This document shows positions 4,811 to 30,208 of a stretch of DNA of 64,000 nucleotides, in pieces; position 1 is the first letter of the stretch; each line of letters starts with the position of its first letter. The DNA is from an uncultured Pseudomonadales bacterium (GTDB lineage: Bacteria; Patescibacteriota; Microgenomatia; UBA1400; MFAQ01): contig CAYGCQ010000002.1 of NCBI GenBank assembly GCA_964348455.1, positions 16,121-80,120 of the forward strand, read 5' to 3'. Made by a program: the position numbers and the translations under genes. The notes beneath the pieces were generated by a model that was not told the origin of the DNA, did no database searches, and saw nothing but the letters and a program-made list of their open reading frames with translations.

Positions 4811-5236
4811 TCATTTTTCCTTCTTGTAGACAGCCATCATACCCACACCTTGGACAAAGTCAAAGACAGTCGCCAGGAGAAGTCCTACCCACCAAGCCGA
4901 AATTCCAAGACCAAACTGCTCGGAAAATCTGGATATCACCCAAATAGCGACAAAGTTTACGGCGAGATAACCTATCATCCAGTGTTGGGTAGTAAGAACT
5001 TTTCCCATCATGGCTTGTTTCCATTCAAACAATGGCACCGCCAAAGTTCCAATCAGAGAAAGCATCAGCATGCTATGGAAAATTGCCCATCCAAAACTAA
5101 AGCTCATGGTTCCCAGAACTACTTGGCTTGGAAACATCACTCCTGCTAAATAAATCACGATACTGTTCAAAATCATCTGAACAAAAAATGTCGCAGCTAG
5201 TTGGCTACCGGTAGATGTGGGAAGATGTTCTTTCAT
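4811..5236 (-). CDS. small polytopic membrane protein (4 predicted TM helices), function unknown
   Basis: Hydrophobic helices throughout the 141-aa ORF; longer than the overlapping antisense ORF 4802..5149. Confidence 0.5.
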   Translation of the reverse strand: MKEHLPTSTGSQLAATFFVQMILNSIVIYLAGVMFPSQVVLGTMSFSFGWAIFHSMLMLSLIGTLAVPLFEWKQAMMGKVLTTQHWMIGYLAVNFVAIWVISRFSEQFGLGISAWWVGLLLATVFDFVQGVGMMAVYKKEK

Positions 5237-6272: not shown

Positions 6273-6896
6273 GTGGTCGATGAAAGGGTATTTTTAAGTG
6301 GAATAGAAGCAATTGCAAGAGGGGAATCATCTCTGGAAATTTGGCAGGTCATGAATCTTGCTGAAAAATTACAGATTGAGAACTTCAGATTTGGCTACTT
6401 ACCCGATTCGGGCATTGTTTCCGGCAAGATTATCGATCGCAAAACAGCCATTTTTCGTTTCTCAGAGGCGCTTTGGGGCATCAAGCCGGAAGGCTGGCTG
6501 GGCATGGAGCAACAGTGGCTCTACTCAGCCAGAATGAAGTCGGGAAGTGAAGAAACATCAGGAAAAGATAGTCTCAATGATATCGTTTCTGCAGAGCTTC
6601 TGCTAAGATTTTTGGCTCTGATTAAATTCATCGATAGTCTTTCAGACCAAGAAGAAAGTGATGAGATTGCTGATGAAGCCATGATTGCCTTCAATACTTA
6701 TCTTCGAGAAGTTCTTGGAAAAGGTAGAACTCGAATAAGTCGTTTTGGTAATCAGTCAATTTACGCAACACTCAAGAATGCTGGCATAATGATCGGCTCC
6801 ATCGGAGGTAAATACTTGCCTAATCCTGAAGTTGCCTTCCCCCAACTTGTGTCTATGTTGACTTGGGAAAAGATCTCTCCGGAAGCATATCTCTAG
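6273..6896 (+). CDS. hypothetical protein (GTG start)
   Basis: 207-aa ORF with a strong SD; no recognisable domain. Confidence 0.5.
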   Translation: MVDERVFLSGIEAIARGESSLEIWQVMNLAEKLQIENFRFGYLPDSGIVSGKIIDRKTAIFRFSEALWGIKPEGWLGMEQQWLYSARMKSGSEETSGKDSLNDIVSAELLLRFLALIKFIDSLSDQEESDEIADEAMIAFNTYLREVLGKGRTRISRFGNQSIYATLKNAGIMIGSIGGKYLPNPEVAFPQLVSMLTWEKISPEAYL

Positions 6897-6905
6897 TATC
6901 AAAGC

Positions 6906-6930
6906 CCCGCTCAATCGAGCGGGTTTTTTT
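6906..6930 (+). terminator. Rho-independent terminator (ccgctc-aatc-gagcgg + T7)
   Basis: Perfect 6-bp stem with a tetraloop immediately after the stop of 6273..6896. Confidence 0.6.
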
Positions 6931-7999
6931 ATCTCTTATTCCCAAAGGCAGGCGAGACAGCGAAGGGAATTTCTTCCCAATCTCTCACTTTTCTGATCTT
7001 TGTATTTTTTGCCCACACGCAGTCAAGAATTTTAGTGTCAACTCCTTTGCTCTTTGCCATCCCTCTTAGAGCCAGAAGATCTTTCGGAAAACATTTTCCT
7101 CCAAATCCCTTCAGTGTTGTGACATCCATGTGTCCATCCAAAATTCTTTTATCTGCCACCACCATCTTTTTTACTTCTTCGTATTTAATATCTAATTTAT
7201 CGCAAATCTCAGACATTTCATTGGCAAAAGTTACCTTAGTTGCCAAGAAACAGTTCGCCATATACTTCACCATCTCGGCCGACGTCGGATCGGTTTGAAA
7301 GATTGGTGCTAGAGGTAGCACTGCCTGATACATCGCCGAGACTCTGCGAGACACCTGATCATTAGTCGCTCCAATTACAATCCGGTCTGCGTTTACAAAG
7401 TCCTGAAGAAACGATGCTTCCCGCAAAAACTCCGGATTAAAGCAAAACAAGCTTTGCGGATATTTCTTGGCATATCCAGCGGTTGTTCCCGGAACAACAG
7501 TTGACTTGATAATAATAATTTTATCTGTACCTTTGGTGAGCTTAGCTAGTTCTTTCACACTCTGGTCCATGATGGATAGGTCTATGCCGGACTCATCTTC
7601 TCGAATGGGGGTAGGTAAGCAAACAAAAATATAGTCTGACTTGTCTATCACTTCAGATAAAGATTCAAAATCTTTATATTTATCATAAATATGCACCTCT
7701 TGATTCGAAAACCCGTACTCAACTGCTTGCCCTACAAAACCGTATCCGATAATTCCAACACGAAAAGTTCTCTTTGACTTAAGGTTTGCTGACTGAGTAA
7801 TCGGCATAATACCTCTAGCTCCTGAATTCTGCTGTAATCTTTCTTTGTCAATCAGAGACTTTACATACTGGTGAATCGTCGGCACACTTTTCTTAAACTT
7901 CTTAGCTATCTCATCGAGGGTGGGGGAGAATTGATTGTCTCGGTAATAATCTTCGATGTACTCGAGAACTAGTTTTTGTTTTGGGGTTATACCTAACAT
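6929..7999 (-). CDS. LexA-like N-terminal winged-helix DNA-binding domain fused to a truncated UDP-glucose/GDP-mannose 6-dehydrogenase-like domain (NAD-binding Rossmann fold plus catalytic-Cys region; no UDP-sugar-binding C-terminal domain)
   Basis: N-terminus MLGITPKQKLVLEYIEDYY...PTLDEIAKKF...VKSL..KERL...RGI follows the LexA DBD pattern. Then GIIGYGFVGQAV (GxGxxG) and GFGGKCFPKD (the UDPGDH catalytic Cys motif). Total 356 aa, about 100 aa shorter than full UDPGDH. Confidence 0.65.
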   Translation of the reverse strand: MLGITPKQKLVLEYIEDYYRDNQFSPTLDEIAKKFKKSVPTIHQYVKSLIDKERLQQNSGARGIMPITQSANLKSKRTFRVGIIGYGFVGQAVEYGFSNQEVHIYDKYKDFESLSEVIDKSDYIFVCLPTPIREDESGIDLSIMDQSVKELAKLTKGTDKIIIIKSTVVPGTTAGYAKKYPQSLFCFNPEFLREASFLQDFVNADRIVIGATNDQVSRRVSAMYQAVLPLAPIFQTDPTSAEMVKYMANCFLATKVTFANEMSEICDKLDIKYEEVKKMVVADKRILDGHMDVTTLKGFGGKCFPKDLLALRGMAKSKGVDTKILDCVWAKNTKIRKVRDWEEIPFAVSPAFGNKR

Positions 8000-8000
8000 A

Positions 8001-8040
8001 TTACTAATTTATTACTAATAAAATAATAATATTACTAAAA
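8001..8040 (-). promoter_or_regulatory. three copies of a 9-bp near-palindrome ATTAGTAAT (ATTA-N-TAAT) immediately upstream of the LexA-like gene start; candidate auto-operator
   Basis: ttactaatttattactaataaaataataatattactaaaa begins 2 nt upstream of the start codon (minus strand). Confidence 0.35.
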
Positions 8041-8193
8041 CATAATGAAGTCAACACCTCTGCTTTCTACGCAACAGTTCGAACCGGGGGCTTTTGTGAA
8101 GCCAAAAAATTCCAGACAAATACTGCCACTGAAATCCAATAAATATATTTACGAGGGGTAAGTCTTCTTCTCACTTAAACTGGATTATAAACT

Positions 8194-8994
8194 TTATCTA
8201 AATGGTCCTCTGAGCTCTTCCGGTAAATTCCTAGACACCTGATACATAGACTCTACTGCTGCTAGATTCGTAGTTTCCGCCGTAATAAAAAAAGGTTTTC
8301 CTACTACTACCCCAATCTCTCTCTCGTCTCCCCAAACAGCCACTGGTACTGTCGGAATACCCATCCTTGAAGCCAGCATCGCCATTTTTCCCGACCCGTC
8401 ATGATATGTGTGTACAGGAGAAACAGTCCCATTTATTTCCACATGACCTTCCGGAGAAATTGCCACGATATTATTATCTTTAAAAGATCTCATCATTTTT
8501 CTAACTGCCACCGTTCGACCGGTCAAGAAATCTTTTCTGTTTTCCGCTGTCGGTACCGAAATAATATTATTGGAATACATGCCATGAAACCTTTCCAATA
8601 GCCAGACAGATCCCGGCATTGCCGTTTTTTCGTTAAAGTTTTTTGTTGTCAAAGGAATTTCGGATCCCATCGCAAGCCGTACCTGTTTTTGGTTCGATTC
8701 AAAAATACTTACAAAAAGCTCCAGCATGGCAGGTAGCAAAACCTCCATGTTTGGATGATTAAAAACAATTAAGCAACCACTGTCTGTCGGAATATTTTCA
8801 ACTCCCCGCAAATTTACTTTGGAATGCTTTTCTAGTTCTACTAAAAGCTTCTCGGCATCTTCGACCATATCTCTTCCGTTTTCTCCCGTCACAATTCCCC
8901 ACATTAGTTCTCTGAGCAGTCCTGCTCGATAAAAAGAGGCGGCGATTCTGGGAAGTCGGGATAACTCCGGAGATAGTGGCATCTGATTTATCAT
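8194..8994 (-). CDS. lysophospholipid acyltransferase (PlsC/LPLAT)-like protein
   Basis: ISPEGHVE (FPEGTR-like) and IPTVPVAVWG blocks; the HX4D motif is imperfect (FNHPNME). Confidence 0.35.
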   Translation of the reverse strand: MINQMPLSPELSRLPRIAASFYRAGLLRELMWGIVTGENGRDMVEDAEKLLVELEKHSKVNLRGVENIPTDSGCLIVFNHPNMEVLLPAMLELFVSIFESNQKQVRLAMGSEIPLTTKNFNEKTAMPGSVWLLERFHGMYSNNIISVPTAENRKDFLTGRTVAVRKMMRSFKDNNIVAISPEGHVEINGTVSPVHTYHDGSGKMAMLASRMGIPTVPVAVWGDEREIGVVVGKPFFITAETTNLAAVESMYQVSRNLPEELRGPFR

Positions 8995-9022
8995 AGCAAT
9001 TTCTTATTGCTATAGTTAATTT

Positions 9023-9940
9023 ATGTCTGAATTCGATAAAAGAAAACTAATTGAACAAGTTCTATCCAAAGAACCTCTTCCATATATTAATCCTGAGGTC
9101 TACGAGACGAAACAGGGACTAACATATCTCAAAGAACCGGGTGTTGCTATTATCTCCATTCCCCATGTCGATCTTCGTGGCGCTCAAGGATTTCTTGATG
9201 GTTTTCCTAAAGAGCTTGAATTTTTTAAATATCTGGATGATCCGACTCCTCTTCCTCCGGCTGAAACCCTAGTAAAGTTCGCCGGTCAACTTTGTTATCT
9301 CAGTCACGGTCCAAACAGGACTTTAAACAAAGAGGCTCAAACCTATCTCAAAAACATAAAAGAATCCGGCCACGGTTCGGTCTTGGAGCATAGCAATATT
9401 TCCATTCTTCTCTGGGGTGTTTCCCGAAGTCTCACTCATGAACTAGTACGCCACCGCGCCGGCTTTGGTTTCTCTCAGGTCTCCCAGCGATATGTCGGTG
9501 GCCGTACTTTGCGTTTTGTAGAACGCCCCGAATATTCCGAAGACGAGTTCCTTCATAGGCTATTCGAAGATAGAATTGAAAATACTCAGCATGAGTATGA
9601 ATGGATTACAAATTATCTTTATGAAAAGCAGAAAGAATATTCAGGTGGAATCCTAAGTGCTGAGCATAAAACTGATTTACGAAAAAAGGTTCGTCAATCA
9701 GCTAGGTCGCTCCTCCCCAACGAAACCGAAGCCCCTGTCGTCGTTACTGGCAATGTCCGTGCTTGGAGGCATTTTCTAAGCATGAGGGGTAGTGAGCATG
9801 CCGAAACAGAAATTCGTAGAGCTGCTTTCGAAGTTTATCGCTGTCTGGATCAAGTCGCCCCTATATTATTCGAAGACTTTGAAGTTAAAGTTTTCCCGGA
9901 TAGCACAAATGGTTTATTCACACCCTTTCCGAAGGTTTAA
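9023..9940 (+). CDS. thyX: flavin-dependent thymidylate synthase ThyX
   Basis: ThyX signature ...HELVRHRAGFGFSQVSQRY (RHR...S.RY). Confidence 0.8.
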   Translation: MSEFDKRKLIEQVLSKEPLPYINPEVYETKQGLTYLKEPGVAIISIPHVDLRGAQGFLDGFPKELEFFKYLDDPTPLPPAETLVKFAGQLCYLSHGPNRTLNKEAQTYLKNIKESGHGSVLEHSNISILLWGVSRSLTHELVRHRAGFGFSQVSQRYVGGRTLRFVERPEYSEDEFLHRLFEDRIENTQHEYEWITNYLYEKQKEYSGGILSAEHKTDLRKKVRQSARSLLPNETEAPVVVTGNVRAWRHFLSMRGSEHAETEIRRAAFEVYRCLDQVAPILFEDFEVKVFPDSTNGLFTPFPKV

Positions 9941-12839: not shown

Positions 12840-12990
12840 AGTTTTTTGTAACTACTAATATAATAATTCTAACAGTTTTTCAAAAAAAGGCAGAACTTGC
12901 ACAGCAGAAAGATCAGCTTCGATAAGTTGACCAATAAGGCTTATAGTGATATACTCTCCAAAGTAAAAATTCGCACCTTAAGGAGTTAAA

Positions 12991-18473: not shown

Positions 18474-18508
18474 TCAAATATTGTATTGCATTTATCGCTA
18501 CGAAACAC

Positions 18509-18535
18509 TGTCATCCCTGGCTTGACCAGGGATCC
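18509..18535 (+). repeat. REP-like hairpin repeat, type B (tgtcatccctgg-cttga-ccagggatcc)
   Basis: Conserved TGTCAT/ATCC flanks around a perfect 8-bp stem. Confidence 0.6.
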
Positions 18536-18569
18536 ATCCAATAAGTACCGAATTAGGAATTAATCTAAT

Positions 18570-18595
18570 GGATTCCTGCCTTTGCAGGAATGACA
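18570..18595 (-). repeat. REP-like hairpin repeat, type B, inverted orientation (BIME-like pair with 18509..18535)
   Basis: ggattcctgc-cttt-gcaggaatgaca is the reverse complement of the family consensus. Confidence 0.6.
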
Positions 18596-18665
18596 ATAAA
18601 ATATTTTCTGGATTGCCATGTCACCTTGTTCCTCGCAATGACGATAAACATATATAATATAGATA

Positions 18666-23785: not shown

Positions 23786-25198
23786 TTATAGAGCTAAGAG
23801 TATTCCTATGATAGCTAGCATGAGTCCTCCGCCAAATGCGGCTATACCGGGGAAGTCTAAGATTCCAGTCTCAGGAAGTACTTCTCGTTGAGCTACAGCA
23901 TCTGTGGGAGCTACTGTTCCTCCGTCAACGATCTCATCTGTGGGAGCTACTGTTCCTCCGTCAACGATCTCGTCCGTTGGCGCAGCCGTAATCTCGTCCG
24001 TTGGTGCAGCCGTAATCTCATCAGTTGGAGCTGTTGTTGGGCAAACACAGGAACCTGCATCCAAACAGGCTGCTTTTCTACAGGTTTCTGTTCCGGTGTC
24101 ACAAGTTAGACCTGTGGTGCATTCGGAGTCGTCAGTGCATGACTCATTACAAGCAACTACGGACTTGACTGCAAGATCTTTGTCAGCTGTCTTTACGGTA
24201 TCGCCATATGAAAGTTCACTTGTATTTGTAATCACAGTCCCATTCACTGCCGCGTTTGAAACTTTGACCCTAAAAGTAAGCGTCTTTGACGCTCCTACAG
24301 CTAAAGTGATTCCAGAACAGGTAACTTTGTAGTTTGAGTTTGAAAAAGTACAGTCAGTGGTAGTATCTACAAATGTTAACAGATCTTGGTTCTCACCATC
24401 CAATGTATCTGAAACGGTTACATTTGTGGCTGGAGCAGTGCCATCATTTTTAATTACTAAAGCGTATATAAAAGTTTGGTTACGAGAAACTGTTGTGATG
24501 TCGGTTGTGGAACCTTCTTTAAAAGCTTTTTTAGTAATAGACACATCTACCACTTGGCATACAGCAGTTGCAGCACACTGTTTAGTAGTTGCTACTCCGC
24601 ACGAATCCGTACAAGTAGTGATCACCGATGCTGCCTGACCACAAGTAGTAGGACAATCGGGGGAACAAGTTACTTCAGCAGTAGCTACACAAATTGCAGT
24701 TGCAGACACTGAACAGGCCGCGGAAGTTTCGAAACAGATAGTACTGCCATCGGCTTTTTTGCATCTACCGTCGGTTTCGTCGCAGGTAAGTCCAGTAGCA
24801 CACCCGGAGGTTGAAGTACAAACTCCACATTCTGAGGGTTTTGTCGGAGGAGTGGGAGTTGTGGTTGGTGCGGTTGGACATTTAGTCATATCCTTCGTCC
24901 ACGCACCTCCTACGCTAGGGCAACACCAATTTTCATTTCCACAAACCTCTACTCGTCCGGTAGTGGTACAGACGGAATCGCTGGAAGTGCCATCAGACTC
25001 AGGAGGTGTACAGCTTTGTAAGAGGTTCGGTGTCGTTGGGTTCGGACAATGCTCCTCGCAGGTAGCAGCTCTGGAACCTGTTGGGACTATTCCCTGACCT
25101 GTACTAATTCTGTATGAAACAAAGATTGCTGCAGCTGCAATAAGAGCAATAAGAGCTATTGTTATGATTGCGACTATGTTTTTTCTTTTGTTATTCAT
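23786..25198 (-). CDS. Cys-rich, Thr-rich cell-surface protein with a DUF11-like repeat domain and a C-terminal LPETG sorting signal
   Basis: N-terminal TM; many Cys; C-terminal TAAPTDEI repeats; ends VLPETGILDFPGIAAFGGGLMLAIIGILLAL. Confidence 0.7.
   Translation of the reverse strand: MNNKRKNIVAIITIALIALIAAAAIFVSYRISTGQGIVPTGSRAATCEEHCPNPTTPNLLQSCTPPESDGTSSDSVCTTTGRVEVCGNENWCCPSVGGAWTKDMTKCPTAPTTTPTPPTKPSECGVCTSTSGCATGLTCDETDGRCKKADGSTICFETSAACSVSATAICVATAEVTCSPDCPTTCGQAASVITTCTDSCGVATTKQCAATAVCQVVDVSITKKAFKEGSTTDITTVSRNQTFIYALVIKNDGTAPATNVTVSDTLDGENQDLLTFVDTTTDCTFSNSNYKVTCSGITLAVGASKTLTFRVKVSNAAVNGTVITNTSELSYGDTVKTADKDLAVKSVVACNESCTDDSECTTGLTCDTGTETCRKAACLDAGSCVCPTTAPTDEITAAPTDEITAAPTDEIVDGGTVAPTDEIVDGGTVAPTDAVAQREVLPETGILDFPGIAAFGGGLMLAIIGILLAL
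23899..24018. repeat. intragenic tandem repeats: 36-bp unit x2 (perfect) then 24-bp unit x2 (1 mismatch), encoding the TDEITAAP / TDEIVDGGTVAP stalk repeats
   Basis: Direct repeats read from sequence, directly upstream (in gene sense) of the LPETG signal. Confidence 0.8.
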
Positions 25199-25210
25199 TT
25201 TTAATTTCGT

Positions 25211-27190
25211 TTAGTTAGCTGTGGCAACACAAACCCCTAAAGCATCAGGAGTTTTTGAGGATACTTTGCATTCAAACCCAGTCGGGCACTTAATTCCAGC
25301 GACTCCTGCACAAGTTGTTTGAATTGAAGCGGTAGAGGGCGCAGTGCTTACATAAGCCTCGAATTTATATGTTCCAGTTTTTGAAATAGTGTAGTCGTAG
25401 TATGAAGTTAGTTTGGTGGTTGTGTTTAATAGTCCGGAAGCAACAACTTCTACAGTGGAACTTGTTCCCTGAGTAATTCTAAACTTAGCTCTTAAATTCG
25501 CATTGTTTGATCGAACCGCTAATCTAATCTTGTCGTTAATTTTTATTTTGTTTCTTTGGTCCAGGGTCATCGGTGTGGTGTTAAATGTTCCATCAGTTTT
25601 TTGTGAGAACAAGCTAATCTCCATACAAGCACCTGGATTAGCTACGACACACACTTTGGTGCCAGGAACTGTTCTTTTTGTTCCGCAGTTGCTAGTTTGA
25701 TTTACTGTGGCAGTGGTACAAACTGTATTTGCATTAGGTGTCCAACTGGAAACTGTACAGCCTCCCCCTCCACCTTTTGTAGGAGTAGCAGTTACCCCAC
25801 CACCTCCTGTAGAACCGCCGCCACAACCCGAAGTTGACACTACGCATTTGCCACCTGAAATAGCTTCACCTTGGTGACAGCAAAATCTATCTTGGGTTGT
25901 AGCTGTTGCGGTGCTTTTACATGTAAATGCACCAGAGGTATAAGTTGTAGAACAGCAAAGTCCTGGGCTACATACGTCCGTGTACCCTCCGGCGGGTTTG
26001 CATGCTTTAGAGGTAGCACTGTATTCAGGATTTGCTGTAGAACAGCAAAGAGTTGGTGTGCCTACTGAGTTATTGCACGTAGATGCCCCAGCGGTTCCAG
26101 CCGGCAAATTACAATCAACACCCGCTGGACAAGTAGATTTAGACGGATTAGCCACACAAACAGCCCTCGCATTACATCCATCATATGTACCATTTAAACA
26201 ACATGTTAGTTTCATCGTTCCAGGCAAGCTAGAGTTATTAGGAGTACTGCTAAGAGGTGTTGTGCAACTTACTGTTTTTGTATCTTTTCCATATTCACAT
26301 GTTCCGGAAGGAGTTTGAACACATGTTCCTCCGATACACCTATCAGGACTAGTGCACCCAGAATCATTACCACAAATCGTATTGCGACACACTCCACCAA
26401 TAAATTTTTGATCCGCTTCACAACTTTCTGCGGGTGGTGGTGCTGCTGTGGCTGTCCCAGTGAAACACTTTCCACTTAACAAAGGTACTCCAGGGCTACA
26501 ACAGTACTGAGGGGTTGTTGAAGTTGATGAGGAGTAGCACTGTGTGCCTCCGGACTCTGCTCCAAAAGAACATTGTAAATTATTGCCAATAGAGTTACAT
26601 AACTTTTTAGCTGTTGACGGTGTCGGTGTTTTTGCGGGAGTGCCTGTAGCTTGTACACCTCCACAGCCAGATACTTCTGGGTGTCCAATACAACTTGTTT
26701 TTGTAGCATTACAGCTGAAACAGGGGCCGGGGCAGTTTGAAGAAGTACATGTGTATCCTGTTCCGTATCCAGTCGGTGTGGGGGCAATTGGTTTACAAAC
26801 ACCATTAACGCATTTCTCTTTTCCTGCTTTGCACTGAGAGGGGTTGTTTGTACAACCGCCTGCTGCAAACGGCTGAAGTGGTCCGGTCAAGGCTATTCCA
26901 CCTCTGGAAGCCAGCTGATTAGAAACATAATAAGCAGCTCCAGCTACACCCACTACTAGTAGTAAGGCAATCATTCCTAATGCAATTTGTTTAAATTTAT
27001 TTTTCGGTTTCTTCTCTGGCCATTGGATCTCAGGGGTAGTAGGTGATGTTGGTGTTATCGTGGTCGTGGTGGTGGAATCTGGAGTAGTTGTAGTGGTCGT
27101 GGTTAGAGGAGCTCCCAGCGGTTCTTGATTCGGCATCGGAGGATTAAATGGCTGACCGGAAGTTTGATTCGAAAGATTTTGTTCGTCCAT
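25211..27190 (-). CDS. very Cys-rich surface protein (about 60 Cys), N-terminal TM anchor, Thr-rich; paralog of 28244..30208; no C-terminal sorting signal
   Basis: Shares the N-terminal module AGAAYYVSNQL.SR.GIA.TGPLQPFAAGGCTNNP.QCKAGKE.CVNGVCKPIAPTPTGYGTGYTC with the paralog. Confidence 0.65.
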   Translation of the reverse strand: MDEQNLSNQTSGQPFNPPMPNQEPLGAPLTTTTTTTPDSTTTTTITPTSPTTPEIQWPEKKPKNKFKQIALGMIALLLVVGVAGAAYYVSNQLASRGGIALTGPLQPFAAGGCTNNPSQCKAGKEKCVNGVCKPIAPTPTGYGTGYTCTSSNCPGPCFSCNATKTSCIGHPEVSGCGGVQATGTPAKTPTPSTAKKLCNSIGNNLQCSFGAESGGTQCYSSSTSTTPQYCCSPGVPLLSGKCFTGTATAAPPPAESCEADQKFIGGVCRNTICGNDSGCTSPDRCIGGTCVQTPSGTCEYGKDTKTVSCTTPLSSTPNNSSLPGTMKLTCCLNGTYDGCNARAVCVANPSKSTCPAGVDCNLPAGTAGASTCNNSVGTPTLCCSTANPEYSATSKACKPAGGYTDVCSPGLCCSTTYTSGAFTCKSTATATTQDRFCCHQGEAISGGKCVVSTSGCGGGSTGGGGVTATPTKGGGGGCTVSSWTPNANTVCTTATVNQTSNCGTKRTVPGTKVCVVANPGACMEISLFSQKTDGTFNTTPMTLDQRNKIKINDKIRLAVRSNNANLRAKFRITQGTSSTVEVVASGLLNTTTKLTSYYDYTISKTGTYKFEAYVSTAPSTASIQTTCAGVAGIKCPTGFECKVSSKTPDALGVCVATAN

Positions 27191-27468
27191 TTCAGATATA
27201 TTAAGTCCAATAAAATAGGGCCTGAAATAAATATATCTGTTTTATTTCCCAGCGTCAATGATTATTATCATTTACTTTTATCAAATAGTTTTTCTTTTAG
27301 TGTGAGACAAACACTCAATCTTTTTTCCTTCAAAATAACAAGTTAAATGCACTTTTTCTTCACAAAAAAAGTTTCAAATAAAATTTTTATAAATAGAGTA
27401 AAACAAAATCATGAGAAAAAAACTCGCATTATTATTTTTTGCTTAAGACGTGCTGAGTGAACTCCTTC

Positions 27469-28221
27469 TTAGGGTAGAGGTTCTTCTGTTGTTGGCGTCT
27501 GTGAAGTCGAGTCATCAGTCCAAGTGACGTTTCCGAAGTCATCGATGATTATCGCTCTGCATTGATTTCCATAGCGAGCTGTGTTCGGAATGCCGCTACA
27601 GTCCACAGGCTCGTCAGGGTTAACCGTTGCATCTGGAACTACTTCTAGGGCGGGATCAGCCGTGGGGGCTTCGAATGCTGCAGGTTCACTCTCTGGAGCG
27701 GTTGGAGCTACCGCTTGTTGTCCACTGATGGCTTTTGAGACAGCGAAGACCCCACCGCCGGCGAGGCCAAGTACTAATATTGCTATCAATCCAACTATAA
27801 CGGGCGAAGTCCTTGTCTTTTTAGGTAACATTTCTTGGTTGCTAGTCGTCGCTGATGGGGTCGGAAGATCCATAGCTGTACTCGTAGTAGTAGTTGTGTT
27901 TGTCATCGAGTTGGTAGTTCCTGTCTCTCCCATTGGTGTCATTATCGGGGCAGATACGGAAGGTGGTGCTGAAAAAACGGGATTATCCAAGCCTGTAGTT
28001 TCGGGTTGAAAAGATCTTTCTGCCGATGTCGGCTCTGCTGGGGTAATGTCCTCAGTGCTCGTCGTTGTGGTCGTAGTTGTTAAATTAGGTGAGTCGACAG
28101 GTGGGTAGGATTCAGTCGGAGCTATGTCTAAGTTTGGCTGAGCTTGCGGCGGCTGGCTGGAAACAGGGGGTGTTCCTCCGGCTGAAGCGGTATTGAGGTT
28201 CCTTGTGTCGGTATTATCCAT
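27469..28221 (-). CDS. Pro/Thr/Ser-rich bitopic membrane protein, function unknown
   Basis: Low-complexity N-terminal half, central TM VIVGLIAILVLGLAGGGVFAV, 80-aa C-terminal domain with 2 Cys. Confidence 0.45.
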   Translation of the reverse strand: MDNTDTRNLNTASAGGTPPVSSQPPQAQPNLDIAPTESYPPVDSPNLTTTTTTTSTEDITPAEPTSAERSFQPETTGLDNPVFSAPPSVSAPIMTPMGETGTTNSMTNTTTTTSTAMDLPTPSATTSNQEMLPKKTRTSPVIVGLIAILVLGLAGGGVFAVSKAISGQQAVAPTAPESEPAAFEAPTADPALEVVPDATVNPDEPVDCSGIPNTARYGNQCRAIIIDDFGNVTWTDDSTSQTPTTEEPLP

Positions 28222-28243
28222 AATTTATTTTTCTAACTAATAA

Positions 28244-30208
28244 CTAAAGCGCAAGTAATATCCCCACAATTGTAAGTATAAGTCCTCCTCCAAAGGCGGC
28301 CACTCCGGCGAAGTCAAAAATTCCTGCTTCGGGTAATGCTGTTGGCCTAGGAGCTCTCGTTGCTGGGACTCTGGTTGGAACAGAAGCTGTTCGTTCTGTT
28401 GGTTTCGGGCACACACAGGAGGTTATATTTGAACATTCATTGTTTCTGCACTTATTCGTTTCCGTGTCGCATAACAGCCCATCTCCACATTCAGTATCAG
28501 AAGTGCAGGTGTGGTTACAACTCACTATGGTGCTGACTAATAAATCCTTTTCTGCTTTAAGAATTTTTCCCAAATAAGTTACAGTTGCAATATTTTTAAT
28601 TACTGTACCATTGACTACCGCGTCCGAAACGGTTGATCTAAAAGAAAACTCCTTTGTTTCACCCGGATCAAGTGAGGTGTTGCAGACAACCATTTTCTCC
28701 GGCGACGAGTACTCACAGACCGCCTCTTTATCAAGGAAGGTCAGTTTATCTTGGTTTAATCCTGTTAGGGGGTCGGTGATTTTTACCCCATCTGCCTTAT
28801 CAGCCGCATTGTTTGATACTTGAATCGTATATACGAATGTTTGATTTTTTGAGACAGTATCAATTTCCTGAGTCAAAGAGTAGTTTCCTGATGAGTTATC
28901 CGCTTCATCTTGATATGCCTTTTTGTCTATCGAAACATTTGATTCACAGGACTGTGTATTACATGCCTTTTCGGAATTTCCTCCGTCAACCTCATCACAG
29001 TTGAGAGCTCCACCACAACTTCCTTCAGTACAAGTTCTGGTTTGAGTTCCACCTCCACAAGACTTAGTACAATCACTCCAGTCAGACCAAATAGGTGGAG
29101 TTAATACACAAGTTGTCGCGGCCGTAAAATTTCCTTTACATCTATTGTCTTGTCCAAAAACAAGATTTGCCGCCGGTAGCATCAAGTATCTAGCTACGAT
29201 GGTGTAACTTCCTGCCGCCGGTATATTGTAAATATATTCAAATTTTCCGGTTGTCGAATTTAAAATTGTCGGTCCCCAATTTGCATCGTTAATTTTTATG
29301 TCTACTTGGGTAGTATTTTTCGCTGTCACTGCAAATTTTATACGTGAACCTGGCTTTGCTTCAGCTGATAGTTCAGCAGAAGTAAGATTTTTCCAAGACC
29401 CATCTGTTTGTTGAATGGAATAGTCAATGGCGGTACATGAGACAACTGGCGTTGGTGTTGGTGTGGGAGTTTTTGTCGGCGAAGGGGTAGTTGTAGTCTT
29501 CGTTGGTGTCGGTGTAGATGTCTTAGTTGGCTTAGGTGTTGTAGTACTGCCTCCGGAAGAGACACACCCATTACCGCTTGGATTACATACGTATCCCACT
29601 GCACAGCAAGTCATTGCTTTTCCTGTCATATTGATACACCAAGATCTGCCTTGATTCCCACAAGAAATTCGAGTATCGCTTCTACACTCATAACCGGTAC
29701 AAGCATCACCACCTAGACAGTGACAGTCTGCAGCTGGGCATGTTGACCCACAATGGTTAATTACATTTCCATTTGCATCTCTCGGGGCTCCTTCATCGAT
29801 TGGTAGTGCGATGTTTTGTCCTGCTATCCCAGTGCTTGAAACACCCGCACAGCCGAGGGAAATACAACTTGTTTTAGCGGCATTACACTTGAAACACGGT
29901 GATGGACAGTTCGTGGTTGTGCATGTATACCCTGTTCCATAACCTGTGGGTGTAGGGGCAATAGGTTTGCAAACACCATTCACACATGTTTCTTTTCCTG
30001 CTTTACACTGAGCTGGATTGTTTGTACAACCACCAGCAGCAAAAGGCTGAAGAGGTCCAGTTGGGGCTATTCCTGCTCTGGAAGACAACTGATTAGAAAC
30101 ATAATAAGCCGCACCGGCAATTACCACCATCAAAACAGTCGCAATTATGCCTAATAGCAATCGTCGCCTTCGGACTTTATTTTGTTTCAATGACTCTTCT
30201 CCGCTCAT
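28244..30208 (-). CDS. Cys-rich surface protein with N-terminal TM, PT-rich linker, TSP1-like motif, DUF11-like domain and a C-terminal LPEAG sorting signal
   Basis: WSDWSDCTKSCGGGTQTRTC motif; C-terminus ALPEAGIFDFAGVAAFGGGLILTIVGILLAL. Confidence 0.7.
   Translation of the reverse strand: MSGEESLKQNKVRRRRLLLGIIATVLMVVIAGAAYYVSNQLSSRAGIAPTGPLQPFAAGGCTNNPAQCKAGKETCVNGVCKPIAPTPTGYGTGYTCTTTNCPSPCFKCNAAKTSCISLGCAGVSSTGIAGQNIALPIDEGAPRDANGNVINHCGSTCPAADCHCLGGDACTGYECRSDTRISCGNQGRSWCINMTGKAMTCCAVGYVCNPSGNGCVSSGGSTTTPKPTKTSTPTPTKTTTTPSPTKTPTPTPTPVVSCTAIDYSIQQTDGSWKNLTSAELSAEAKPGSRIKFAVTAKNTTQVDIKINDANWGPTILNSTTGKFEYIYNIPAAGSYTIVARYLMLPAANLVFGQDNRCKGNFTAATTCVLTPPIWSDWSDCTKSCGGGTQTRTCTEGSCGGALNCDEVDGGNSEKACNTQSCESNVSIDKKAYQDEADNSSGNYSLTQEIDTVSKNQTFVYTIQVSNNAADKADGVKITDPLTGLNQDKLTFLDKEAVCEYSSPEKMVVCNTSLDPGETKEFSFRSTVSDAVVNGTVIKNIATVTYLGKILKAEKDLLVSTIVSCNHTCTSDTECGDGLLCDTETNKCRNNECSNITSCVCPKPTERTASVPTRVPATRAPRPTALPEAGIFDFAGVAAFGGGLILTIVGILLAL

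Follow-up and report, generated by a model that had tools for sequence, protein, structure and literature searches.

A 64,000-nucleotide stretch of DNA from an uncultured member of the Patescibacteriota (contig CAYGCQ010000002.1; hereafter the window, ~42% G+C) encodes a protein in which a LexA-type winged helix-turn-helix (wHTH) domain is joined to a short-form nucleotide-sugar dehydrogenase-like core. The coding sequence (6929..7999, minus strand) was delineated from the open reading frame (ORF) list together with matches to Pfam and NCBIfam, begins with ATG, and specifies 356 amino acids. This fusion protein is probably a bifunctional trigger enzyme, wherein an active short-form dehydrogenase also serves as repressor of its own gene; that the protein binds DNA, that it represses instead of activating, and that its core is still catalytically active are properties that we infer from sequence. 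The repeats found directly upstream of the fusion gene are real and are evolutionarily linked to the DNA-binding head. Literature searches did not find a description of a LexA-head/dehydrogenase fusion.

The DNA-binding head and the dehydrogenase core

As judged from sequence profiles and predicted structures, the N-terminus of the fusion protein is a LexA-type winged helix (residues 1–68; 7796..7999, minus strand). When a profile of 21 N-terminal domains was compared with the PDB, the nine best matches were all LexA (E 1.5e-12 to 8e-11, the next match having E 6e-5), and the alignment to the LexA structures covers residues 1 to 68 end to end. A separate AlphaFold2 (AF2) model of the N-terminal domain has a predicted local distance difference test (pLDDT) score of 86.5, and the nine best Foldseek matches of the domain in the PDB are LexA N-terminal domains, with template modeling (TM) scores of 0.80–0.82 and root-mean-square deviations of 1.1–1.4 Å. 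The original prediction had assigned the N-terminal ~70 amino acids to a LexA wHTH, and the profile search and structure prediction agree with it. In the AF2 models the domain is made up of helices at residues 6–22 and 28–35, a recognition helix at residues 39–51, and a wing formed by strands at residues 55–57 and 64–66. The profile alignment places the recognition-helix side chains His43 and Gln44 opposite Glu44 and Glu45 of E. coli LexA, which we take to be base-contacting residues. Pfam LexA_DNA_bind (PF01726) matches residues 1–54 with 25.0 bits against a cut-off of 23.7, and generic winged-helix families match as well. The NCBIfam model for LexA, TIGR00498, reaches 23 bits against a cut-off of 110.95 and covers residues 2–85 only, and Pfam shows no Peptidase_S24 domain in the fusion protein. 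The head is followed by a variable linker (residues 69–78; 7766..7795, minus strand) that is modeled with low confidence (pLDDT <50 at residues 69–75; flanking blocks 61–66) and whose columns differ in both length and sequence across the homologue alignment.

Residues 79–222 (7334..7765, minus strand) are assigned to an NAD-binding Rossmann domain on the basis of PF03721, invariant columns, and conservation in the short-form family described below. This domain contains the glycine motif G82-x2-G85-x-G87-x2-G90 (the motif GIIGYGFVGQAV occupies residues 82–93), Asp106 at the end of strand 2, Thr167, and Glu190 and Glu194 within the sequence NPEFLRE. Residues 238–335 (6995..7288, minus strand) are assigned to the central dimerisation and catalytic domain of UDP-glucose dehydrogenases (UGDHs), based on PF00984, alignments to solved UGDHs, and the AF2 model. 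This domain contains Lys245, Asn249, Cys303 (codon 7093–7091), Lys306, and Asp307, the last three within GFGGKCFPKD (residues 298–307). The Pfam match to UDPG_MGDP_dh_N (PF03721) spans residues 108–220 and profile positions 64–184 of 187 (E 5.7e-23), the match to UDPG_MGDP_dh (PF00984) spans residues 240–333 (E 2.9e-25), and NCBIfam TIGR03026 scores 190.2 bits against a cut-off of 189.8 over model positions 70–296 of 413 only. AF2 modeling of the whole protein from a 70-sequence alignment (pLDDT 82.5) yields the wHTH, the low-confidence linker, and then a UGDH-like fold with a central helix of 31 residues (238–268); the best fold match to this model is 1mfz. The closest solved relatives are the full-length UDP-glucose dehydrogenases 4a7p and 3vtf (E ~1e-31), and their alignments end where the C-terminal domain of these enzymes starts. 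No short-form dehydrogenase is present among the sequence matches to solved structures.

The fusion protein resembles Ugd, TuaD, AglM, and AlgD in that its NAD-binding domain and central domain contain the complete set of catalytic residues, but it differs from these enzymes at both ends of the core. Its Rossmann fold is shorter after strand 1 and helix A than that of UGDHs (the Pfam match to the N-terminal domain starts at profile position 64), and Phe, Ile, or Met replaces the Tyr of the UGDH motif GxGYxG. At the other end, the C-terminal UDP/GDP-binding domain of ~100 residues is absent, as the Pfam scan returned no match to UDPG_MGDP_dh_C (PF03720), and the protein instead has the tail motif DWEEIPF (residues 340–346; 6962..6982, minus strand), which was recognized by its conservation in the fusion clade and stands at the position where full-length enzymes run on into the UDP-binding domain. 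Both dehydrogenase motifs named in the original prediction could be placed; the end of the protein, put there at ~45 amino acids past GFGGKCFPKD, lies 49 residues beyond Asp307, and the reported absence of the UDP-sugar-binding domain was confirmed. A G+C-rich hairpin (6906..6923, listed without a strand; terminator scan and sequence) follows between convergent genes. The terminator scan assigns it to a plus-strand gene, the ORF at 6273..6896 (plus strand) that stops just short of it, and its stem also sits past the stop codon of the fusion gene. Because the hairpin follows the stop codon and the end of the convergent ORF is adjacent, the short C-terminus does not stem from a recent frameshift.

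Searches of 1.84 billion cluster representatives indicate that the two-domain dehydrogenase is a very large natural short-form family and not a truncation. Ranked below the fusion cluster are more than 100 representatives of ~260–310 amino acids that align to residues ~80–349 with 36–54% identity. Conservation was evaluated in a sample of 133 representatives (50% identity, 255–320 amino acids), in which Lys245, Asn249, and Lys306 are 100% conserved, Glu190 and the catalytic Cys303 are 99% conserved, and Thr167, Asp307, and the NAD-specifying Asp106 are 98% conserved. Overall, the catalytic set, GxGxxG, and Asp106 are 80–100% conserved in these distant representatives, and the DW of the tail motif is kept in 68% of the wider short-form family. 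The term "truncated," which had been applied to the dehydrogenase when the fusion was first noticed, is misleading in view of these 133 representatives and the near-universal presence of the catalytic Cys among them. Among 70 fusion proteins, Thr167, Glu190, Glu194, Lys245, Asn249, Cys303, Lys306, Asp307, GxGxxG, and Asp106 are invariant or nearly so; in the tail, Asp340, Trp341, Ile344, Pro345, and Phe346 are invariant, and Glu342 and Glu343 are nearly invariant. The intervals in T167-E190-E194...K245-N249...C303-D307 match those in the S. pyogenes enzyme, whose numbering we take to be T118-E141-E145...K204-N208...C260-D264.

The genomic context of the short-form relatives offers further insight into their function. 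Members of the family are fused to a sugar-phosphate nucleotidyltransferase (NTP_transferase), a family-2 glycosyltransferase (GT2), an NAD-dependent epimerase/dehydratase, and APS kinase, and on a 481-kb phage-like contig one member (L089 8001–8888) has as neighbours three epimerase/dehydratase genes and genes for a nucleotidyltransferase, a cupin, and a glycosyltransferase. Based on these fusions to, and clustering with, nucleotide-sugar genes, the short form is predicted to work in nucleotide-sugar metabolism without the canonical nucleotide-binding domain. It is also more likely that the fusion protein retains catalysis than that its core is a sensor-only domain, as the 70 fusion proteins show little or no variation at the catalytic residues, the orthologues that have no DNA-binding head keep these residues and are 57–73% identical, and a sensor-only domain is not expected to keep the nucleophile and the general acid/base set at such depth. 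The description of the protein as a regulator derived from a dehydrogenase implied a sensor-only core, which is the less likely reading. The 481-kb contig also encodes TubZ and a UvsW-like helicase and is probably a huge phage. Two other short-form relatives (P0135 and P0195) carry inteins with LAGLIDADG endonucleases.

Promoter repeats and their link to the head

The minus strand upstream of the fusion gene reads TTGACT tcattatgt TTTAGTAAT attattatttt ATTAGTAAT aa ATTAGTAAT ATG. A promoter scan identified TTGACT-17-TATTAT at 8054–8026 with 10 of 12 matches, consisting of the -35 hexamer TTGACT (8049..8054), whose TTGAC shows little or no variation across 10 Collierbacteria loci, and the -10 hexamer TATTAT (8026..8031), which lies within a degenerate repeat unit, ATTATTATT (8030–8022). 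The distal repeat TTTAGTAAT (8031..8039) is located between the two hexamers. Two proximal repeats, ATTAGTAAT-AA-ATTAGTAAT (8000..8019), are 11 bp apart, reach the start codon, and form the putative operator core; the exact copies of ATTAGTAAT occupy 8019–8011 and 8008–8000, and the pair fills the ~20 nt that separate the -10 hexamer from the ATG. A weak further unit, GTTAGGTAT, falls in codons 1–4 (7989..7997) in 11-bp phase with the upstream repeats (7989–8008, 3 mismatches), and ATGTTAGG is invariant there at the nucleotide level in the 10 Collierbacteria loci; all of these elements are on the minus strand. The three repeat copies reported within 40 bp upstream of the gene were recovered as three exact copies of the 9-mer TTAGTAATA before the ATG, with start-to-start distances of 11 and 20 bp. 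In the window as a whole, TTAGTAAT has 7 matches where 2.6 are expected, three of them at the fusion-gene promoter. The 20-bp pair ATTAGTAANNNATTAGTAAT has 6 matches with up to 3 mismatches where 0.30 are expected, and 5 of these are overlapping readings of the fusion promoter.

The leader is also atypical for this DNA. A Shine-Dalgarno (SD)-like motif precedes only 10 of the 47 window ORFs of at least 150 amino acids, and many window ORFs have a -10-like hexamer (TATACT, TATAAT, or TACAAT) 7–10 nt before the start codon, which suggests that leaderless mRNAs are widespread. The fusion gene instead has a ~20-nt leader composed of repeats. An RNA-element reading of this leader was rejected, as folding revealed nothing unusual (z = -0.24) and no Rfam family matches the leader.

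The signal of the repeats comes from comparing loci with and without the head. When one genome per species was retained, ~20 loci carry the fusion and ~56 carry only the core, with 51–73% identity; the latter, head-less loci are mostly from Daviesbacteria, plus two from Woesearchaeota. Every fusion locus has a TTGACA-like -35 element, a spacer of ~17 nt, a -10 element, and, after it, a run of two to four TTAGTA-like units that ends at the ATG or overlaps it. Adjacent units are spaced 11 bp apart in 20 of 28 cases, with exceptions that include 22 and 33 bp, and the units hold a fixed register to the ATG, with core positions -19 and -8 recurring across lineages. Of the 20 fusion upstream regions, 18 contain at least two core motifs, as against none of the 56 head-less ones (0/56). 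The head-less orthologues have a plain TATACT-type box 8–9 nt before the ATG, a position that suggests leaderless transcripts. In the ten Collierbacteria, the repeat cores (TTAGTA / T(T/A)AGTA) are invariant and the -35 element nearly so, while the intervening DNA is variable.

The periodicity was also measured without reference to a motif. A statistic that counts 8-mers repeated with up to one mismatch could not separate the fusion upstream regions from shuffled sequences in this A+T-rich DNA, and it was replaced by lag autocorrelation, in which lag-11 self-identity is computed over positions -45 to +8. The value is 0.52 for 18 less-redundant fusion loci and 0.336 ± 0.016 for shuffled sequences (z = 11.6). 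For 88 other upstream regions of the same loci it is 0.29, with none reaching 0.5, and for the 56 head-less orthologues it is 0.28; by comparison, 61% of the fusion genes reach 0.5. Taken together, the repeats have the behaviour of an operator that goes with the head, and comparative footprinting supports a cognate operator at the gene's own promoter.

The sequence of the unit varies by lineage with the period kept, being ATTAGTAAT in Collierbacteria, ATAAGTAT in Woesebacteria, ATTAGATAT with the NT/NA recognition helix, and TGTAAT-like with H43Y; the unit cores noted in these lineages are TTAGTAAT, TAAGTAT, TTAGATAT, and TGTAAT. The TTAGAT units accompany the NT/NA recognition-helix variants and TGTAAT accompanies H43Y, a co-variation of recognition helix and operator that is only suggestive. 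In the H43Y variant (L086, upstream of 372) the unit is (C/A/T)TGTA(A/T)T with a spacing of 10–11 bp, and it resembles what we take to be the E. coli SOS half-site, CTGTAT.

Proposed self-repression and competing explanations

Across the 64-kb window and 107 kb of Collierbacteria loci, paired sites (up to 2 mismatches) were found at the fusion-gene promoter only, and a further 156 kb from other lineages likewise contained lineage-specific pairs only in front of the fusion gene. Since the paired site was found at no other promoter, self-repression is the best reading of the array. A second site had been proposed at 12852–12867, in front of a membrane-protein/radical-SAM operon. The sequence in question, ATTATTATATTAGTAG, is indeed present at 12867–12852, but its role as a site is not supported, as it holds a single 1-mismatch 9-mer that lacks a second copy at 11-bp distance; 1-mismatch 9-mers are in mild excess in the window (33 versus 20.7 expected). 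The sole other paired match in the window (18541–18560, 3 mismatches) is surrounded by G+C-rich hairpins and seems fortuitous. The divergent intergenic region around it (18474–18665) contains two such hairpins, CCCTGGCTTGACCAGGG and GGATTCCTGCCTTTGCAGGAATG.

In the proposed mechanism, a short-form dehydrogenase would have acquired a LexA-type winged helix on a flexible linker in one Microgenomates clade. A long central helix forms the dimer interface in UGDHs, and the fusion protein is likewise expected to oligomerise via its dehydrogenase central domain. The winged helices of the oligomer would then occupy successive 11-bp direct repeats of the ATTAGTAAT type along one face of the DNA helix; as these repeats are direct, unlike the inverted half-sites of LexA, the flexible linker must allow tandem placement if this mechanism is correct. 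The array extends over the -10 hexamer, the probable start of transcription, and all of the short leader to the ATG, such that its occupancy would block RNA polymerase and the enzyme would repress its own monocistronic gene. In its simplest version, this is concentration-dependent self-repression that needs no ligand. Sensing of NAD(H) or a nucleotide sugar is plausible by analogy, and a metabolite-gated trigger enzyme is a possibility to which we give less than even weight; here, NAD+/NADH or a sugar nucleotide in the active site would change the presentation of the heads, and the oligomer would join or leave the 11-bp array cooperatively.

Several observations weigh against autorepression by an active enzyme. 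In the classical mode, a symmetric dimer of LexA-type domains recognizes inverted half-sites, and the repeats observed here are direct. The array is A+T-rich and per-locus repeat statistics are weak, so that the signal comes from the cross-locus comparison. The idea that H43N alone switches the unit from TTAGTA to TTAGAT failed, as one variant with H43N (P0021/L085) keeps TTAGTAAT. The genome was seen over ~64 kb only, which limits the self-target-only claim to the sampled DNA, and the single origin of the fusion discussed below derives from a neighbour-joining tree without support values. Finally, as the nucleotide-binding domain is absent, the sequence leaves the substrate of the predicted enzyme unspecified.

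The principal alternative is a sensor-only regulator, in which the core would no longer turn over substrate but would sense NAD(H) or a sugar nucleotide in the manner of the one-component factor Rex, and might control other genes. This arrangement is unlikely. It would account for the Rex-like order of an N-terminal winged helix and a Rossmann NAD-binding domain, for the conserved NAD-binding motif and Asp106 in a protein that lacks the UDP-binding domain, and other targets could lie outside the 64 kb over which the genome was seen. However, the nucleophile Cys303 and the catalytic constellation are invariant or nearly so across the fusion clade, these residues are also conserved in the head-less orthologues and in hundreds of short-form relatives, the short-form relatives are fused to or located among nucleotide-sugar enzymes, and ~330 kb of sampled DNA contains no second target. 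It is improbable that the repeats are instead promoter or translation-initiation elements (reiterated -10-like boxes in an A/U-rich, SD-less leader) that the head does not bind, with the head acting elsewhere or in protein-protein contacts. The unit junctions do make TAnnnT hexamers, the SD sequence is rarely used and many genes look leaderless, and the units stand in fixed register to the ATG. Against this reading, the 11-bp periodicity is lacking both in the 88 other upstream regions of the same genomes and in the 56 head-less orthologues with their plain -10 box; moreover, the RNA fold is unremarkable and without an Rfam match, and the unit sequence shifts between lineages as the period stays.

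Should the head bind the array, the protein could still activate its own promoter, or be an enzyme that is merely tethered to DNA and does not regulate by its binding, although we regard either arrangement as very improbable. Helically phased direct repeats are typical of some activators, for example those of the OmpR/PhoB type, but the sites here cover the -10 hexamer, the start site, and the leader, and a near-consensus TTGACT-17-TATTAT promoter should not need activation. The idea that the gene is an artefact, either two genes wrongly called as one or a pseudogene in decay without its C-terminal domain, was rejected and retains almost no credibility. The missing domain is all that speaks for it, whereas more than 100 independent clusters have the ORF uninterrupted and at the same length, the stop codon is followed by a hairpin with a convergent gene directly beyond, and the short form is a natural family in its own right.

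Known systems, distribution, and gene neighbourhood

The trigger enzymes BirA, PutA, NadR, and RbkR offer the closest functional parallel, as each joins a DNA-binding domain to a catalytically competent enzyme, which is predicted for the fusion protein as well, and has its operator at the promoter of its pathway or its own gene, again as predicted here. RbkR is an archaeal riboflavin kinase with a winged helix that was found by comparative genomics (PMC5397151), as was the present case. As in these proteins, a DNA-binding domain and what by sequence is an intact catalytic domain are combined in one polypeptide; the fusion protein differs from them in the type of DNA-binding domain, in the enzyme fold, in having its own gene as sole detected target, and in its operator of tandem 11-bp direct repeats. 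Rex shares with the fusion protein an N-terminal winged helix and a dimerising Rossmann NAD(H)-binding domain, but the Rex domain is neither catalytic nor UGDH-like, and the likeness is architectural only. Rex operators are inverted repeats that control respiratory or fermentative genes. The Rex families PF06971 and PF02629 have no match in the fusion protein at E up to 0.01, and by sequence the protein is not a member of the Rex family. LexA has a DNA-binding domain that aligns with the N-terminal 68 residues, and it also autoregulates. In contrast to LexA, the fusion protein contains no S24 peptidase, no Ala-Gly cleavage site, and none of the logic of RecA-dependent self-cleavage, and its predicted operator consists of direct 11-bp repeats in place of the palindromic SOS box. 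Without the peptidase domain and the SOS box, the fusion protein is, by its sequence features, not a LexA-family member.

To our knowledge, hardly any transcription factors can be recognised in bacteria of the candidate phyla radiation (CPR), and these bacteria have no genetics. A regulator with a defined, phylogenetically footprinted predicted operator is directly testable in vitro for these bacteria. If the trigger-enzyme assignment is correct, this class would gain the combination of a LexA head with a nucleotide-sugar dehydrogenase-like core, and a LexA DNA-binding domain is predicted to read direct rather than inverted repeats. If gating by a metabolite is also correct, a one-protein circuit would couple redox or cell-envelope precursor status to enzyme level in the genome-reduced CPR bacteria, the LexA-type domain would be the first to work within an enzyme and apart from the SOS logic of self-cleavage, and there would be a handle on the substrate of the short-form dehydrogenase family. 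The finding overturns no concept, but it draws attention to the large uncharacterised short-form branch of the UGDHs, whose members occur in CPR bacteria, in DPANN archaea, and on huge contigs that resemble phage DNA.

The full architecture of 352–361 amino acids recurs in more than 100 clusters at 90% identity, which are 60–92% identical. Their source names are Collierbacteria, Woesebacteria, Pacebacteria, or plain Patescibacteria, and the database labels of the protein are "nucleotide sugar dehydrogenase," "helix-turn-helix domain-containing protein," or "hypothetical." When the cores were placed in a neighbour-joining tree, which carries no support values, every fusion fell inside one clade together with one head-less member and two members with decayed N-termini, and the LexA-type head was probably gained once within the Microgenomates. 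The gene of the head-less member of this clade (L022 4609–6849) lies stop-to-start behind genes for a PNP_UDP_1 nucleoside phosphorylase and a phosphoribosyltransferase, a context of nucleoside salvage and not of glycans. The short core of the two Woesearchaeota (DPANN archaea; L069 and L071) is 51–56% identical to the CPR proteins, which hints at transfer between two groups of small-genome symbionts. Among the neighbours of head-less orthologues that were examined (NUDIX, UPF0102, RNase HII, L19, DnaE, and GatB), neither a split HTH gene nor a separate gene for a UDP-binding domain was found. In Daviesbacteria, a NUDIX hydrolase gene is divergent from the head-less orthologue in 22 loci (e.g., L048 5521–5925), and the genes for UPF0102, RNase HII, L19, DnaE, and GatB are likewise syntenic with it. 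The NUDIX neighbour would fit a nucleoside-diphosphate-sugar substrate.

The fusion gene is monocistronic, its neighbours are not conserved between classes, and no conserved operon partners were found across classes. In the window it is surrounded by genes for a GNAT acetyltransferase, an ORF without a family, an acyltransferase, ThyX, uracil-DNA glycosylase, and a radical-SAM protein, with FemAB and LytR-CpsA-Psr proteins further out. The ORFs at 6273–6896 (plus strand) and 4811–5236 (minus strand) have no Pfam family; the latter encodes a small membrane protein and has a single TTAGTAAT 12 nt before its ATG. A 21-bp palindrome, ATAGCAAT-TTCTT-ATTGCTAT (8993–9013), separates the acyltransferase gene (8194..8994, minus strand) from thyX (9023..9940, plus strand), nearly filling the 28-bp gap between their divergent start codons, and may be an operator for another regulator. 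Finally, the region 23786–30208 (minus strand) encodes three large Cys/Thr/Pro-rich proteins that are predicted to be secreted or anchored, two of which (25211..27190 and 28244..30208) share a near-identical N-terminal module, as judged by eye from the translations.

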